NCBI GenBank assembly: GCA_050252415.1
Contig: JBFWKZ010000001.1
Location: 1 to 57,179 of the forward strand
Reading direction: 5' to 3'
Source: Oscillospiraceae bacterium
Lineage (GTDB): Bacteria > Bacillota > Clostridia > Oscillospirales > Oscillospiraceae
DNA length: 57,179 nt
In this document: piece by piece, positions 421-11,595 of the stretch
How the letters are laid out: every line of letters begins with the position of its first letter
How positions within the stretch are numbered: position 1 is the first letter of the stretch
Made by a program: the position numbers and the translations under genes
The notes under the pieces: model-generated
Database searches by the model: none
Told to the model about the DNA's origin: nothing
The model's input: the letters and a program-made list of their open reading frames with translations, nothing else

Positions 421-2961
421 GTGGTATACAATTTGTTTTTCTGGGGCGTACCCGTCATTACGCTTGCAACCTATCTTATCCTTATATTTTTCTTTGCGAT
501 AAGCAAGAAAGATAGGGCGATACGGGCTTTCCAGCCCATATTGTTTGCCTTGGCCCTCTGGAGCGCCTCTTCTCTGCTCATGAAGCTGCAACTCCCACCG
601 GGACCGCTGTTTTGGAACAAGATGATGATGGTGGGCGTCATCACCAGCCCGCTCCTCATATACATATTCCTGTCTGTTTTTACCGATACCGTGCGCATCT
701 TCCGCATGGCTGCCTTTTCCCTGGTCACGATCGCTTTTATTGTCATAGATATCACCTTGGGGATAGTGAATTACGCCAACGTTATAGAGAAGACGGTTAT
801 TGAGGGCGGGAAAACCATCAATCAAATCGAGTTTTCGTATGAATTGAGTATGTGGGCGGTACCGACCTATATCGCCATGCTCTTTTTTACCGTGATTATT
901 ACTAAAAAAATTCACTATTGTCTCAAGACAAATAAATCCGAATATAAAGCTGTCCGCCCAATTCTGATCGGTATTATCCTTGTGTTCTGCGGCCTGCTTT
1001 CAAATATTATTCCTCAGCTGGGAAAATACCCTATCGATATTCTCACCAGTTTTATAAACGGTCTGCTCATCTTCTACGCGATCTACCGCAACCGCATGCT
1101 GGAGATGAAGTTCATGCTGACACAGGGCTTGGTCTACTCCATTTTTTCCTGTATTATCATGGGCGTCTATATCTTCGTGGCCTATCATCTAAACAGGCTG
1201 CTTGCCGGGGTATATTTGGCCAATGAGTATATCGTCTTTATTCTTGCGCTGTTGGTTGCCATGCTGTTCCAACCTGTCTTAAGCCTTACAAAAAAGTTAT
1301 CTGAGCTTATTTTCTATAAATCTGAGTATTCTCAGCGGAATGCGCTTAAATCCTTTAATATCAATATCTCAAACACGCTTAGCCTGACTGAGATATCCGA
1401 CAAATTTATTGAGACGATTAATAACGCAATGAATCCGCGCCACACATGTCTCCTCCTTGAAGATGACGAGACCGGCGTTTACACCACTTTCAATTCCCTG
1501 CAAAAACTAAACCCCATGGCGCTGACGCTAGACGGTGATCACCCTGTCGTTGCGTGGCTGCGTGAAAAAAATCAGTGCATTACGCGCGAGGAGCTTGACC
1601 ACAGCATTTTATTTAAGTCGATGTGGGACGCTGAGCTGACCGCTCTGCGCAACATGGACACCGAGGTCCTTGTTCCACTGAGATGCCGCGACGACCTTAT
1701 CGGCATTATCCTGCTTACCTCCCGGCGCAATAATATCTCCTATACATCCGACGATCTCGATTTACTTAAATCTTTCAGTGCGTCTACGGCTATGGCAATC
1801 AGCAACGCCGCATTGTATGCCAAGGCCAAAAATGAGGCGTACACCGACGATATGACCGGGATATACAATCGCCGGTATCTCTTTAAATATCTCAAAGAAC
1901 AACTTTTCGAGCGCCGTGCCGACACGGTGTCGATCATCATTTTTGATCTCGACCGCTTTAAGCTCTATAACGAGCTGTACGGTTATACCGAGGGCGACAA
2001 TGCCATTGCCAAAGTCGCCGCATTGATTGCCAAATTTGTCGACCGCCGGGGAATCAGCGTGCGGTACAGCGGTGAACAATTTGCCGCCGTCCTGCCGGGA
2101 GTAGACGCTTCCAACGCCCGCATCCTCGCCGAGAAGGTCCGCGTTAAAGTGCAGCAGACCTTTTTCGACGATGAGAGCACAACAAAGCAGTTCCTGACCA
2201 TAAGCTCCGGAATATGTTCATATCCCGTCTGTGCCGGAACGTCCGACGAGCTTCTGCACCGTGCAAACCTTGCCCTCCTGAAGGCAAAGGAGGCGGGGAA
2301 AAATACGACCGTCGTCTATGCCTCGGCCAAAAGCACCGCGCTCAACGCCGAAGAGGACCGCAACAACGATACATCGGATCTGCGGGCGACGATATACGCA
2401 CTGACCGCCGCGATTGACGCCAAGGATCACTATACTTTTGCCCATTCACAGAATGTTGCCAAATACGCCACCGCAATTGCCCGGGAGCTCGGTCTGGACA
2501 GTGTAACCCAAAAGATTATCTATGAGGCCGGACTGTTACATGATGTTGGAAAGATCGGTATTCCTGAACATATTCTGACAAAGGCCGAAAGACTGACGGA
2601 TGAGGAGTATACGATTATCCGAAAACACGTTGACATCTCAATCAACATTGTCAAGCATCTTCCTTCGATGGCTCATGTTATTCCTGCGATCGTTGCCCAC
2701 CATGAACGGTGGGACGGCAAGGGTTATCCAAGAGGAATATCCGGCGAGCGTATCCCGATCGAAGCCAGATGTCTTGCTGTGGCGGATACGTTCGATGCCA
2801 TTACGTCCATCCGCCCATATAAGACCCCGCTTTCCACAGAATACGCGCTGCGGGAGATTGAGCGCAATATCGGGACACAATTCGACCCCAAAGTTGCCAG
2901 CGCCTTTTTGCGCATGGTGCGTGCGGGCCGGGTTGACGTAACTCCGGCAACGTCTTTGTAA
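421..2961 (+). CDS. membrane sensor protein: N-terminal multi-TM domain, GAF-like region, degenerate GGDEF domain, HD-GYP phosphodiesterase domain
   Basis: 846-aa ORF with a GTG start. There are about 7 hydrophobic helices in the first ~290 aa. The GGDEF-fold block 'DDMTGIYNRRYL...IIIFDLDRFKLYNELYGYTEGD...VRYSGEQFAAVLPG' has SGEQF in place of GG(D/E)EF. The HD-GYP signatures 'LLHDVGKIGIPE' and 'HHERWDGKGYPRG' are intact. Confidence 0.85.
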   Translation: MVYNLFFWGVPVITLATYLILIFFFAISKKDRAIRAFQPILFALALWSASSLLMKLQLPPGPLFWNKMMMVGVITSPLLIYIFLSVFTDTVRIFRMAAFSLVTIAFIVIDITLGIVNYANVIEKTVIEGGKTINQIEFSYELSMWAVPTYIAMLFFTVIITKKIHYCLKTNKSEYKAVRPILIGIILVFCGLLSNIIPQLGKYPIDILTSFINGLLIFYAIYRNRMLEMKFMLTQGLVYSIFSCIIMGVYIFVAYHLNRLLAGVYLANEYIVFILALLVAMLFQPVLSLTKKLSELIFYKSEYSQRNALKSFNINISNTLSLTEISDKFIETINNAMNPRHTCLLLEDDETGVYTTFNSLQKLNPMALTLDGDHPVVAWLREKNQCITREELDHSILFKSMWDAELTALRNMDTEVLVPLRCRDDLIGIILLTSRRNNISYTSDDLDLLKSFSASTAMAISNAALYAKAKNEAYTDDMTGIYNRRYLFKYLKEQLFERRADTVSIIIFDLDRFKLYNELYGYTEGDNAIAKVAALIAKFVDRRGISVRYSGEQFAAVLPGVDASNARILAEKVRVKVQQTFFDDESTTKQFLTISSGICSYPVCAGTSDELLHRANLALLKAKEAGKNTTVVYASAKSTALNAEEDRNNDTSDLRATIYALTAAIDAKDHYTFAHSQNVAKYATAIARELGLDSVTQKIIYEAGLLHDVGKIGIPEHILTKAERLTDEEYTIIRKHVDISINIVKHLPSMAHVIPAIVAHHERWDGKGYPRGISGERIPIEARCLAVADTFDAITSIRPYKTPLSTEYALREIERNIGTQFDPKVASAFLRMVRAGRVDVTPATSL

Positions 2962-3145
2962 GACGTTTTGCCAGGGTGTGGAACTTTGGGCTTTTTCTGC
3001 AAATGCCTACTTTCCCAATGACGGGACAAGAGGCCTGCAATCCGGGAAATGTTATGCCGGGTATGGTACCGGATTATGTATGCCGTGGTAACGGTGCAGA
3101 CCATATCCGTACCTGTACGCCTGTAGCAATTTTGTATGAAAGGAC

Positions 3146-3201
3146 AAAAAAGTCCGGCAGACGATGGTGAGTGATCCTCACATCTGCCGGACCTCGTTTT
3201 T
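3146..3201. terminator. bidirectional intrinsic terminator between convergent genes
   Basis: 10-bp stem gtccggcaga (3152-3161) / tctgccggac (3183-3192) with an inner gtgag/ctcac stem. An A-run lies 5' and ttttt (3196-3200) lies 3'. Confidence 0.6.
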
Positions 3202-3333
3202 CCCGGAGGCTGGTGTTTCCGGTTTTTGCGTTTTGCCGTAACTTTACTTTTGGAGCCTATTTATCCGAGCTGAGGAGCCGTTTTTTACAAATGCGGTCAC
3301 GATTTTATGACGTACTGACACGGCTTTGCTTAT

Positions 3334-5820: not shown

Positions 5821-6516
5821 ATGGAATCATTTCAAGAATCGATACTTGACAATCTCAGTAATCCCATTGTCTTTACGATCCCGCTTTTCGGCGGCATACC
5901 GGTGGCGCAATCTGTGGTTGGAAGTTGGATAACCATGGCGACGATCATGATACTTACGCTTTTACTTACACAGAACCTCAAAGAACGCAACCCCGGTAAG
6001 GTCCAGATCGTGATTGAAGCAGGCGTCAGCTATTTAAATAACTTCGTTAAGGAACATACCGGCGAGCGATGGCGCTCATTTGCTCCATATCTCGGTACGA
6101 TAACATTATATATTGCGCTTTCAAACGTAAGCGGGCTGTTTGGCATTTCCCCGCCGACAAAGGATGTTAACGTCACGGCGGCGCTTGCCGTTATGAGTGG
6201 AGTGCTCATCTATGGCGCACAGTTTTACTGCCGCGGATTTATAGGCGGACTAAAACATTTTGCAGAGCCAATACCATTGCTTTTGCCCATAAATCTCATG
6301 GAGATATTCGTCCGACCGCTGGCGCTGTGTATGCGACTGTTTGGCAATATATTGGGCGCCTACATTATCATGGAAATGATAAAGTATTTTTTGCCGATCG
6401 TGGTACCCGTGCCGTTCAGTCTGTATTTTGATCTGTTTGACGGAGCAATTCAGACAATAATCTTTGTATTCCTAACAACCCTGTTTCTCGGTGAGGGGAT
6501 TCAGGAAGAAGAATAA
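5821..6516 (+). CDS. atpB: F0F1 ATP synthase subunit a
   Basis: 231-aa polytopic protein with the conserved 'RPLALCMRLFGNILGAYI' (essential Arg helix). It is the first gene of the atp operon and has a GGGAGG RBS. Confidence 0.92.
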   Translation: MESFQESILDNLSNPIVFTIPLFGGIPVAQSVVGSWITMATIMILTLLLTQNLKERNPGKVQIVIEAGVSYLNNFVKEHTGERWRSFAPYLGTITLYIALSNVSGLFGISPPTKDVNVTAALAVMSGVLIYGAQFYCRGFIGGLKHFAEPIPLLLPINLMEIFVRPLALCMRLFGNILGAYIIMEMIKYFLPIVVPVPFSLYFDLFDGAIQTIIFVFLTTLFLGEGIQEEE

Positions 6517-6544: not shown

Positions 6545-6763
6545 ATGGATTTAGCAATGATTGCCGCCGGTATCGCAGCTTTTACTGGAGCCGGAGCAGG
6601 AATCGGTATCGGTATAGCCACCGGAAAAGCGAGTGAGGCGATCGCCAGACAGCCTGAGGCGGGTGGATCCATCAGAACCGCACTGCTTTTGGGCTGTGCA
6701 CTGGCTGAAGGTACTGCAATATTCGGATTCATCACCGCTTTGCTCATCATATTCACACATTAA
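6545..6763 (+). CDS. atpE: F0F1 ATP synthase subunit c
   Basis: 72-aa hairpin proteolipid with a GxGxGxG helix, the 'ARQPE' loop and the carboxylate 'ALAEGTAIFG'. AGGAGG RBS. Confidence 0.92.
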   Translation: MDLAMIAAGIAAFTGAGAGIGIGIATGKASEAIARQPEAGGSIRTALLLGCALAEGTAIFGFITALLIIFTH

Positions 6764-6776
6764 GGGGGCACACCCA

Positions 6777-7265
6777 ATGTTGGACTTCCAACTATCCACT
6801 ATTGTCTGGACAGTGGTAAACCTTCTGGTTTTGTATTTATTTTTAAAAAAATTCTTATTTGGCCGCATAAATGCGATGCTTGACAAACGCTCACAGATGG
6901 TTGAGGAGACCATTGCCGATGCCGAGCGGAAGCGTACAGAGGCTGAGAAGCTTAGAGCAGACTATGAGAGCCATGTTGCCGCAGCACATGAAGAGGCTGA
7001 GATTATCGTGACTAACGCGAAAAAACGCGCCGATGCCGAGCGCGAGCGCTTACTCAGCGAGGCACAGGAAAATGCGCACGCAATACTCACGGCCGCTCAG
7101 CTGCGGGGGGAGAGAGACAGGGAAAATATGCTGCGCTCAGCGCGTGCGCAGGTCGTTTCTCTGTCGTTGCTTGCCGCCTCGAAACTCGCGGGAAAGAAAC
7201 TGGACAGCGACACAGACCGTGAGATAATCGATGAATTTTTGAACGAAGCAGGTGAGCGCCGATGA
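6777..7265 (+). CDS. atpF: F0F1 ATP synthase subunit b
   Basis: Start at [23 protein letters not shown] (ATG 6777), giving a single N-terminal TM helix followed by a long charged coiled coil. The ORF-track start at 6633 would overlap atpE. Confidence 0.88.
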
Positions 7266-9289
7266 GTGAACTGACAAGACGGTACGCAAAGTCTTTCCTT
7301 GAAAAGGGTGGTAAGGAATCCGAGCTCAAGAGCGCCAATGAGATTCTGACCAGCGACTCAGAGCTTTGGGAAGCCATTATCAGTCCTGCCGTATCGGCCG
7401 AGGAAAAACAGCGAATCCTGCACCGCGTAACCGGATTGCCGGAGTCGAAGACGTTAATGGGCTTTTTAAACCTGCTCGCTGGAAAAGACCATATGAAGCT
7501 TCTGGAGCAGATCAGCCGCGACGTACATTTTTCCGAGATGAAAAAGCAGCATGGTGCAGAAGCTACTTTGACCTGTGTCCGGGAACCGACGGCGCAGCAA
7601 CTCGAAGCGATTACCAAGAAGATATGTGAAATGCACAATCTGGATAAGATTGAGCTTAATATTAAAAAGGATCCGTCCCTTTTGGGCGGTTTCATGCTGG
7701 AACTGGGCGGCGTGACCTATGATCGAAGCGCCAGAGGTGCGCTGCGCGAAATTGCGCAGAACGCTGAGGAAAAGTTAGACCATACGAAAATTGCACCTGA
7801 AGAGATCGTCGCTATCCTGAAAGAAGAAATTGAAGGGTATCAGAATAAAACGCGTACCGATGAACGCGGCACCGTGCTTGAGGCGGGCGACGGTATTGCG
7901 ACGATATATGGGCTGGGCAAAGCTGCCTATGGAGAGCTTTTGAAATTTGATACCGGCGTCGAGGGCATGGTTATGGACCTCAAACGCGATAGCTTAGGCT
8001 GCGTGCTGCTCGGAAGTGAAGACGGGCTCCACGAGGGCAGCGTCGTTCTGCGTACAGGCCAGCCCGCCGCTGTGCCGGTGGGGGAGAACTTGCTTGGAAG
8101 AGTCATAGATGCTTTGGGCAACGCCATTGACGGCTTGGGCAGCATTGATACCACCGAGACCCGCCCAATCGAGCGTGTCGCAAGCGGTGTTATCACGCGT
8201 GAACCGGTAAATGAACCCATGCAGACGGGCATCCTTGCCATTGATGCGATGGTTCCAATAGGGCGCGGACAACGCGAACTGATTGTTGGCGACCGCCAGA
8301 CGGGAAAGACCGCCATTGCTGTCGATACGATTTTAAACCAAAAAGGACAGGGCGTTATCTGTATTTACGTCGCCATCGGGCAAAAGGCGTCGTCGGTTGC
8401 GAATGTCTATGATACCTTGCAAAAACATGGCGCTATGGACCACTCCATCATCGTCTCCGCTACGGCCAGCGACCCTGCGCCACTCCAATATATTGCGCCA
8501 TATGCAGGCGCTGCGATCGGCGAATATTTCATGGAGAAGGGCAAAGATGTTCTGATCATATTCGACGATCTGAGTAAGCATGCGGTGGCCTACCGAACGC
8601 TATCCCTTCTGCTTAAACGTTCACCGGGACGCGAAGCTTATCCCGGTGACGTATTTTATTTGCATTCCCGTCTGCTGGAGCGTGCGTGCCGCCTTACCAA
8701 GGAATATGGCGGCGGATCGATGACCGCGCTCCCAATAATCGAGACGCTTGCGGGTGATGTTTCCGCCTATATTCCCACAAACGTTATTTCGATTACCGAT
8801 GGACAGATTTACCTTGAAAACGACCTGTTTTTTGCGGGCCAGCGCCCGGCGGTCAATGTGGGGCTTTCGGTCTCGCGCGTTGGCGGTGCAGCGCAGAAAA
8901 AGGCGATTAAAAAAACGGCCGGGACCCTGCGCATCGACCTTGCCCGTTTCCGCGAACTGGAAATATTCACTCAGTTTGCTTCCGACCTCGATAATGCCAC
9001 GAAGCAAACGCTGGAACACGGCAAGCGCCTGCTGGAACTTCTGAAGCAGCCGCTTTACCACCCCATGTCCGTCAGCCGTCAGGCGATACTGCTTTATATC
9101 GCGACAAGCGGGCTTCTCGACGATGTCCCGATTGAAAGGATAAAGGACTTTTCCGACGGCTTTATAGAACGTATGCTCACAGAGCATGGCGATGTGACGG
9201 ATGAGATACAAAATACCGGCGAGCTTTCCGGCGTGGCAATCGAGACCATTCGCAGAACACTGGAGGGCTATAAAAAGGAGCGTGGATAA
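7262..9289 (+). CDS. atpHA: F0F1 ATP synthase delta (OSCP) and alpha subunits encoded as one uninterrupted 675-codon ORF
   Basis: The first ~170 aa are delta-like ('...[28 protein letters not shown]'). They run in frame, with no stop and no ATG/GTG/TTG, into a full alpha subunit ('[18 protein letters not shown]...[10 protein letters not shown]', P-loop 'GDRQTGKTA'). The ATGA overlap with the atpF stop is at 7262-7265. Confidence 0.85.
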
Positions 9290-9291
9290 GG

Positions 9292-10173
9292 ATGGCAAGC
9301 ATAAAGGAAATACGCTCCCATATCAAAAGCGTACAGCAGACCCTGAAGATTACAAACGCGATGTATCTCATTTCTTCATCGAATCTGAGGCGCGCAAAGC
9401 GTCAGCTCGATGACGTCTATCCATATTTTAGTAAGATCTTTTCCACGATATCGGATATTCTCCATCACTCGACAAAGCTGGATCACGAATTCTTTGACCA
9501 GCGCCCGGAAATACCGGCGCGACAGCGCAAGATAGGCTACATCGTTGTCACCGGCGACAAAGGGCTTGCCGGCGCATATAATCACAATGTGCTCAAGCTT
9601 GTTGAAGAGAAAATGCAGCTCACAGATAAGCCGCATCTGTTCGTCGTCGGCATTGTCGGCCACATCTATTTTCAGGAACACAGAATTGCAATCGATGAAT
9701 TTGCCTCATATACGGCGCAGAACCCCACAATGCACAGGGCGCGTATGATAAGCGACGATATGGTGCGGCGTTTCCGTGAGCGGGAGCTCGATGAGGTGCA
9801 TATCATCTATACCGAAATGAAATCCGCTCTTCAGCTTGAGGTTCAAGAGCGCAAGCTCCTGCCCCTGGCACGAGAGGATTTTCCATGGAAAGAGCCACAG
9901 AAAGATGGCTATAACCGAGTCGTTACCTATGTCCCCTCCGTCAATGCGGTTCTGGATAATATTGTCCCGGCATATGTCAAAGGGATGATCTTCGGCGCTC
10001 TGGTCGAAGCCTATTGTTCAGAGCAGTGCGCACGGATGATGGCTATGGAGTCGGCAAGTAACAATGCGAAAGATATGCTGAGCGATCTCTCCCTGACCTA
10101 TAACAGGGCGCGTCAGACGGCGATAACACAGGAGATTACGGAGATTGCCGGTGGTGCGAAGAACCTAATATAA
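9292..10173 (+). CDS. atpG: F0F1 ATP synthase subunit gamma
   Basis: 293 aa, with N-terminus 'IKEIRSHIKSVQQTLKITNAMYLIS' and C-terminus 'YNRARQTAITQEITEI' typical of gamma. Confidence 0.92.
   Translation: MASIKEIRSHIKSVQQTLKITNAMYLISSSNLRRAKRQLDDVYPYFSKIFSTISDILHHSTKLDHEFFDQRPEIPARQRKIGYIVVTGDKGLAGAYNHNVLKLVEEKMQLTDKPHLFVVGIVGHIYFQEHRIAIDEFASYTAQNPTMHRARMISDDMVRRFRERELDEVHIIYTEMKSALQLEVQERKLLPLAREDFPWKEPQKDGYNRVVTYVPSVNAVLDNIVPAYVKGMIFGALVEAYCSEQCARMMAMESASNNAKDMLSDLSLTYNRARQTAITQEITEIAGGAKNLI

Positions 10174-11595
<1,422 letters not shown>

Follow-up and report, generated by a model that had tools for sequence, protein, structure and literature searches.

How is an F-type ATP synthase built when its delta and alpha subunits, expected in a 1:3 ratio, are encoded as one chain? 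The question arises from a contig of a landfill Oscillospiraceae bacterium (GCA_050252415.1, JBFWKZ010000001.1), which was analysed over 57,179 nucleotides; this whole stretch of DNA is called the window below. It contains an open reading frame (ORF) at 7262-9289 on the + strand that joins a delta subunit (OSCP) to an alpha subunit, written here atpH::atpA. The fusion is genuine, and we consider it likely that it yields one obligate delta-alpha chain of 675 amino acids (aa) and that each F1 holds three deltas.

The fused reading frame and its junction

Delta and alpha lie in one frame without a stop codon, as an earlier note on this DNA had reported, and both parts are complete. Pfam places OSCP at residues 5 to 166 (91.1 bits against a cut-off of 22.3, profile positions 2 to 170 of 172), and solved deltas align over residues 4 to 166. 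The alpha domains follow, with ATP-synt_ab_N at residues 201 to 266, ATP-synt_ab at 323 to 538 and ATP-synt_ab_C at 545 to 668. The NCBIfam atpA model (TIGR00962) matches residues 177 to 673 with 759.6 bits against a cut-off of 484.45. The nucleotide-binding domain of the alpha part contains the Walker A motif (P-loop) GDRQTGKT. The parts of the fused ORF, assigned in part from an AlphaFold2 model, are the following.

7262-7549, + strand: delta N-terminal domain (residues 1-96), predicted six-helix bundle; AlphaFold2 model and alignment to residues 7-171 of the solved delta 7p2y_d
7550-7777, + strand: delta C-terminal domain (CTD; residues 97-172), predicted four strands plus helices 111-124 and 157-172; AlphaFold2 model, aligns to 9jc1_I in sequence and fold
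7778-7795, + strand: junction or linker D-H-T-K-I-A (residues 173-178); alignment with free deltas and minimum of model confidence
7796-7834, + strand: alpha N-terminal helix (residues 179-191), near the consensus of unfused relatives; AlphaFold2 model
7835-9286, + strand: alpha body, with beta-barrel 7862-8059, nucleotide-binding domain 8228-8875 and C-terminal helical domain 8894-9265

The junction codons read gag gaa aag tta gac cat acg aaa att gca cct gaa gag. The canonical start codons nearest to it in frame are GTG 7712 and GTG 7874, with no ATG, GTG or TTG between them. The earlier note had stated that the junction lacks these triplets. That holds in frame, which is the sense that matters, but not out of frame, where GTG 7737, TTG 7752 and TTG 7791 occur. 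Alpha has no translation start of its own, since ACG stands at the Met position. Delta is not encoded as a separate polypeptide present once per complex, since no stop precedes alpha and the genome has a single OSCP.

The closest alphas (70 to 80% identical) are from Oscillospiraceae labelled Flavonifractor, Pseudoflavonifractor, Oscillibacter, Dysosmobacter and Lawsonibacter, and almost all of these have separate genes. In the eleven closest unfused relatives examined, the delta TGA overlaps the alpha ATG ('...GCATGA...'). A Shine-Dalgarno (SD) sequence of about -8 to -10 kcal/mol lies ~8 nt upstream of that ATG. The free deltas of the relatives are 174 aa long and end in '...EERRMA'. The window delta aligns to them without a gap, and its His174 corresponds to their final residue. 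ACG 7784-7786 (Thr175) aligns with the alpha Met of the relatives, and the residues after it resemble their K-x-x-PEEIVSILREEI-x-GY. This comparison of atpH-atpA junctions, which the earlier note had proposed, puts the window join at the ATGA stop/start overlap of the relatives.

Because the delta alignment is gapless and Thr175 falls on the relatives' Met, the fusion is, as read from this alignment, an end-to-end join at the old overlap. It would combine a frame change with loss of the delta stop and loss of the alpha initiator. A small frameshifting insertion at the ancestral ATGA may have removed the stop and put delta in the alpha frame. This could have been a one-base insertion followed by a change of ATG to ACG, or a two-base 'AC' insertion. 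A chance join is ruled out because the delta part is collinear with the 174-aa free deltas and alpha starts at the next codon.

A sequencing or assembly artefact would produce the same frame if a false indel lay at the delta/alpha overlap, and the window is a contig of a metagenome-assembled genome (MAG) from a single sample. The earlier note had called for read-level support at the junction, and support from a second assembly was found. A 5053-bp Logan contig assembled from the landfill metagenome run X1, at a depth of ~10, covers 7300-8300; it differs by two substitutions (8011 and 8035) and has no indel. Its source is probably the same sample as the window's, which makes it an independent assembly but not an independent sample. 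A slip by one assembler is excluded at the junction. Runs X2 to X4 gave only short pieces, none of them bridging the junction, and two degenerate junction patterns found zero matches in JGI metagenome contigs. A near-identical free delta would expose a strain-specific error; a delta-length search, limited by shared 5-mers, gave one match, at 43% identity. With an identical junction from a second assembler at ~10x, we hold an artefact to be highly improbable. One false indel would also keep the alpha ATG, but the codon is ACG, and hundreds of other genomes have the same architecture.

The fused chain was modelled as a monomer with AlphaFold2 on a 56-row alignment. The model had a mean predicted local distance difference test score (pLDDT) of 83.9 and a predicted template modelling score (pTM) of 0.70. 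It contains the two-domain delta fold, a helical N-domain (residues 3-95) and a mixed alpha/beta C-domain (98-172). These are followed by the linker (173-178), which has the lowest pLDDT, the alpha N-helix (179-191) and a normal alpha. The N-domain helices are predicted at residues 3-14, 19-31, 33-40, 46-55, 63-74 and 78-95, in a block with pLDDT of 75 to 89. The best match among 350,542 PDB chains was 9JC1 chain I (572 columns, root mean square deviation 3.0 A, template modelling score 0.91 on the target, 53% identity). Since this chain is an engineered delta-alpha fusion, the model indicates that the natural linker is compatible with the delta C-domain resting on the alpha of the same chain in the canonical pose for b binding.

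Free alpha, gene copies and the operon

One gene could still give two products. Free alpha would then be made beside delta-alpha, by initiation at ACG 7784 or ATT 7790 or by proteolysis of the linker, and a ratio of ~1 delta to 3 alpha would be restored. GAGG at 7766-7769 lies upstream of both codons, and the linker, given its low confidence in the model, is probably exposed. Some fused relatives also have a Met near the junction, as in 'SESMEELMG' of L048. SD duplex energies at the seven starts of the operon range from -7.8 to -12.9 kcal/mol. The candidate starts are weaker.

ACG 7784: -5.7 kcal/mol; SD-like GAGG at 7766-7769 with a spacing of 13-14 nt, which is too far
ATT 7790: -0.1 kcal/mol
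GTG 7712, nearest canonical start upstream in frame: -4.0 kcal/mol
GTG 7874, nearest canonical start downstream in frame: -1.7 kcal/mol

ACG is not known as an established initiator codon in bacteria. No in-frame start or SD near the junction is conserved across 23 fused genes of other lineages. Five of these genes (L008, L009, L032, L010 and L035) have zero in-frame starts or SD sequences from -25 to +30 codons. In contrast, all nine unfused controls have an alpha ATG with an SD of -6.9 to -10.2 kcal/mol. An internal start was ruled out on the weak SD energies and this lack of conservation. Read from sequence, there is no credible internal start for alpha, and internal initiation is not a feature of the fused genes, since neither start nor SD is conserved in them as it is in the controls. 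Triple fusions of b, delta CTD and alpha, described below, are hard to square with a required release of alpha. We consider two products improbable.

The source genome is 2.43 Mb. PF00006 matches five genes in it, namely the fusion, the beta subunit, FliI, and adjacent V-type B and A genes (NCBIfam names; V/A-type). PF00213 (OSCP) matches the fusion only. These searches found no second F-type alpha or delta in a genome that is 94% complete, so the absence of a second copy is not proven. With the fusion as the only F-type alpha and delta found, F1, if it is made, has three delta-alpha chains. From gene content its composition would be (delta-alpha)3 beta3 gamma epsilon.

The conflict with a 1:3 ratio that the earlier note had raised is genuine, because the fusion is the sole F-type alpha and delta and an internal start is not credible. 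That note had offered internal initiation, proteolysis or an unusual stalk architecture as ways out. Comparative evidence favours the last, and internal initiation is rejected on SD energies and conservation.

The fusion lies in a canonical atpBEFHAGDC F-type operon on the + strand, in the order a-c-b-delta-alpha-gamma-beta-epsilon. Its eight subunits are encoded by seven intact ORFs.

5821-6516, + strand: atpB (a subunit); ORF list and family profile scan
6545-6763, + strand: atpE (c subunit, 72 aa); ORF list and family profile scan
6777-7265, + strand: atpF (b subunit, 162 aa); ORF list and Pfam; its TGA overlaps the delta ATG
7262-9289, + strand: atpH::atpA fused ORF, 675 codons plus TAA stop; ORF list, Pfam and NCBIfam
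9292-10173, + strand: atpG (gamma); ORF list and Pfam
10195-11595, + strand: atpD (beta); ORF list and PF00006 match
11596-12003, + strand: atpC (epsilon); position and size only

The gene order excludes an N-ATPase. The alt_F1F0 alpha model reached 604, short of its cut-off of 750.5, and the corresponding models for a and c fell short as well. A b-delta fusion of the mycobacterial type is likewise excluded by gene order, as atpF ends at its own TGA. The atpF stop and atpH start form an ATGA overlap (7262-7265) of the same type as the delta/alpha boundary of the relatives. A one-base slip there is the kind of event that would yield a b-delta fusion. The c subunit has a carboxylate in '...LAEGTAIFGF...' without the Gln/Ser/Tyr pattern of Na+-binding c subunits, and its ion is probably H+. 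Just 3' of the operon, the G+C content falls to 0.40 at 12000-12999, while the flanking kilobases are at ~0.50-0.55. This low-G+C stretch contains a small Cys-rich ORF on the minus strand (12046-12255).

Fused genes across the Oscillospirales

The window fusion is no one-off. The first protein search returned hundreds of proteins of 673-681 aa with the same four domains, with Pseudoflavonifractor phocaeensis, Flintibacter and 'Ruminococcaceae bacterium D16' among the named sources. These three (~680 aa) and Parasporobacterium paucivorans DSM 15970 (676 aa) share the four Pfam domains and a full OSCP match with the window.

We found an F-type alpha in 184 of 401 sampled Oscillospirales genomes. 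Roughly one third of the genes appear fused, as ~48 among the 150 alpha matches listed have an uninterrupted frame of at least 579 aa. These long frames were counted by hand from the match table, as were the one-stop cases. The latter are ~15 further genomes with delta and alpha in the same frame and a single stop (TAG, TAA or TGA) between them. They are one point mutation or read-through from a fusion; examples are G201, G320, G075, G346, G242, G411, G062, G307 and G283. Four fused architectures were recognized by sequence reading and Pfam.

Full delta-alpha: L008, L009, L030-L033, L047-L049, L125 and others
deltaCTD-alpha: L010, L014, L017, L035, L037, L043, L044, L058, L060 and L063
Tandem (deltaCTD)x2-alpha: L011 (G024:C17), 1243-3264; two modules of delta C-domain plus a segment like the alpha N-helix; two OSCP C-terminal stretches in Pfam
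b-deltaCTD-alpha triple fusion, 747 aa: L018 (G010:C2), 453-3168; ATP-synt_B at 6-134, C-terminal part of OSCP at 171-243, then alpha

The triple fusion L018 has a free 138-aa b/b'-like gene upstream. In this architecture, which we did not find in the literature examined, every alpha would be covalently tied to a membrane-anchored stalk. Alpha frames of 714-787 aa, which may represent this type, occur in about 15 of the Oscillospirales genomes sampled. Two genomes, G028 (C4, C1) and G356 (C7, C118), contain a deltaCTD-alpha operon and a second alpha of normal size in a 498-aa frame, giving two stator designs per genome. G023 and G015 have a full delta-alpha as their sole alpha. The full fusion is also present in cultured strains, namely P. 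paucivorans DSM 15970 (L125) and P. phocaeensis (P0013).

In lineages whose sole alpha is a full delta-alpha, the delta N-domain is conserved relative to the C-domain much as in free deltas. Fused genes have N- and C-domain identities of 33 vs 43% and 48 vs 59%, compared with 35-46 vs 35-53% in free deltas. Because the N-domain stays conserved where the fusion is the only alpha, these alignments indicate that a full-length fusion can function and be maintained by selection.

In a maximum-likelihood tree built from the alpha parts, the window falls in a clade of otherwise unfused genes (support 100/99). An old fused clade (99/99) lies elsewhere, and the window fusion is probably young and independent of it. 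Denser family sampling placed fused members in the window's clade too. Three are full-length (L047-L049) and three retain only the CTD (L058, L060 and L063), and some share genera with unfused members. The alpha core of the Pseudoflavonifractor type (L047, L048) is 79% identical to that of the window. The base of this clade is unresolved in the tree, and an approximately unbiased (AU) test did not reject a single fused clade (p = 0.39).

From the sequences we lean towards a separate, recent event for the window within its own clade, because its alpha N-helix is unfused-like and its delta and alpha core are no nearer to fused than to unfused relatives. Of 26 positions in the helix, 16 agree with the unfused consensus. 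The other full-length fusions differ in that their junctions and alpha N-helices have diverged, with 15-27% identity to the window's helix region. The helix is strongly conserved in unfused relatives and diverges fast after fusion (31-37% pairwise identity among fused genes). This pattern hints at altered contacts between the alpha N-termini and delta. The window delta itself appears somewhat more diverged than its alpha distance predicts. It is 37% identical to that of L019 at 80% alpha identity, while unfused pairs at 79-81% alpha identity have deltas that are 43-49% identical.

Each of the two fused regions of the alpha tree has deltaCTD-alpha clades nested within full-length fusions, which suggests that fusion came first and N-domain loss later, a direction set by parsimony on an unrooted tree. 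The window appears to be at an early stage of a path repeated in the Oscillospirales, from free delta to full delta-alpha to deltaCTD-alpha.

Stalk number and the state of the window enzyme

Several points weigh against an obligate enzyme with three deltas in this organism. No close fused homologue was found among 5.8 billion proteins, and the junction is known from a single sample. The structural model is of a monomer and is silent on assembly. The sequencing runs listed for the stretch include no RNA run. By analogy, the intact N-domain would argue against three fully formed stalks, as the engineered multi-stalk enzyme needed its deletion. Among six other genomes sampled from the same genus, five have no F-type alpha match and contain V-type and FliI matches only. 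G001, also of this genus, has a deltaCTD-alpha gene (L045) that belongs to the separate old fused lineage. On this distribution the F-type operon is patchy within the genus and of mixed ancestry. It may be dispensable, because the genome has a V/A-type ATPase and five of the six congeners lack an F-type alpha match.

The fusion could then be a recent neutral or mildly harmful change, in a cell that relies on its V/A-type ATPase and whose F-type enzyme is impaired or being lost. The A and B subunits of the V/A-type enzyme are in the genome, the junction is a singleton in protein and metagenome searches, and the still ancestral-like alpha N-helix points to a young event. We nevertheless judge this rather unlikely. 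All seven ORFs of the operon are intact with strong SD sites. At alpha positions where 68 other members of the clade do not vary, four changes are singular to the window (P288A, E306V, Y434F and T546K); this is no excess, and two unfused relatives have more. At least two mutational steps, a frame change and loss of the ATG, separate it from an ATGA-type ancestor. Other lineages have stably retained this architecture for their sole alpha.

The earlier note knew of no described delta-alpha fusion, which is now outdated. Ueno et al. 2025 (PMC12229609) mention natural delta-alpha fusions without the N-domain in their discussion (Acidaminococcus fermentans; UniProt G4Q3K6 and A0A1I2C5T3). Natural fusions of b to delta and of delta to alpha, with the whole delta or only its C-terminal part, are described in a 2026 preprint (10.64898/2026.10.01.756066), together with a shortening of delta. 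The window shares with these natural fusions a single ORF in which delta, or its C-terminal part, is N-terminal to alpha. It differs from those of the preprint in that its delta is unshortened, at 174 aa. An earlier operon survey mentions the b-delta fusion only (PMC5709465).

The engineered Bacillus PS3 deltaΔN-alpha FoF1 (PMC12229609; 9JC1) is among the closest known systems. Delta residues 105-178 were fused to alpha, and the enzyme carried one to three b2 stalks and a subunits with a measured H+/ATP ratio of 5.8. In its authors' interpretation, the delta N-domain is what restricts the enzyme to a single stalk. In the window ORF, as in that design, a short linker joins the C-terminus of delta covalently to the N-terminus of alpha, and every alpha would have a delta C-domain; the sequence match covers window residues 101-195. 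The engineered chain lacks delta residues 2-104, whereas the window retains the full six-helix N-domain, predicted to be folded. Stalk number and H+/ATP were both measured for the engineered enzyme.

The Chloroflexus aurantiacus F1Fo (PMC12002316) is a natural F-type enzyme whose complex holds delta, the b2 stalk and the a subunit in more than one copy each. The window enzyme is predicted to have several deltas too and may have several stalks. Its two stalks are held by a dimer of shortened delta N-domains. These deltas are free, and their four-helix N-domains dimerise on the crown, with no fusion to alpha. In the mycobacterial b-delta fusion (PMC8617483; PMC5709465), neighbouring atp stator genes are also fused, but delta is on b in one copy per complex and no stoichiometry conflict arises. 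We found no biochemical characterisation of a natural delta-alpha enzyme in the literature searched. Delta-alpha fusions are a recently recognised, widespread and barely studied natural group, and the window is another instance of it.

For the likely single chain, translation would run from a full-length delta through a linker of six residues into a complete alpha. Every delta C-domain would sit atop its own alpha, as in the engineered PS3 enzyme. From that enzyme and the Chloroflexus structure we infer that only one of the three intact N-domains could occupy the axial crown site, which would leave the other two undocked. With a C-domain on every alpha, b2 stalks and a subunits could join at more than one of them. 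We put forward only tentatively, and with some doubt, a natural multi-stalk F-type enzyme with full-length delta, built from three delta-alpha chains, one axial N-domain and two or three b2-a stators.

How many ions an ATP synthase uses per ATP is set by the count of its peripheral stalks and a subunits. To our knowledge the stalk number of F-type enzymes was thought to be fixed at one until 2025. This view changed with the engineered delta-alpha fusion, which has as many as three stalks, and with the natural two-stalk Chloroflexus enzyme. Natural delta-alpha fusions are an obvious place to seek naturally multi-stalk F-type enzymes. The window adds a clean, seamless and apparently young example with a whole delta. 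The comparison adds that such fusions are common in the Oscillospirales, arise at stop/start overlaps, lose the alpha start codon and occur in cultured strains.

If the multi-stalk proposal is true, the H+/ATP ratio would be well above one third of the c-ring size, and the enzyme would allow ATP synthesis at low proton-motive force in an energy-limited anaerobe. The Oscillospirales would then have repeatedly evolved, through slips at ATGA overlaps, a stator design that was engineered in 2025. The path would lead from free delta to delta-alpha, deltaCTD-alpha and b-deltaCTD-alpha, and the window gene would stand at its first step.

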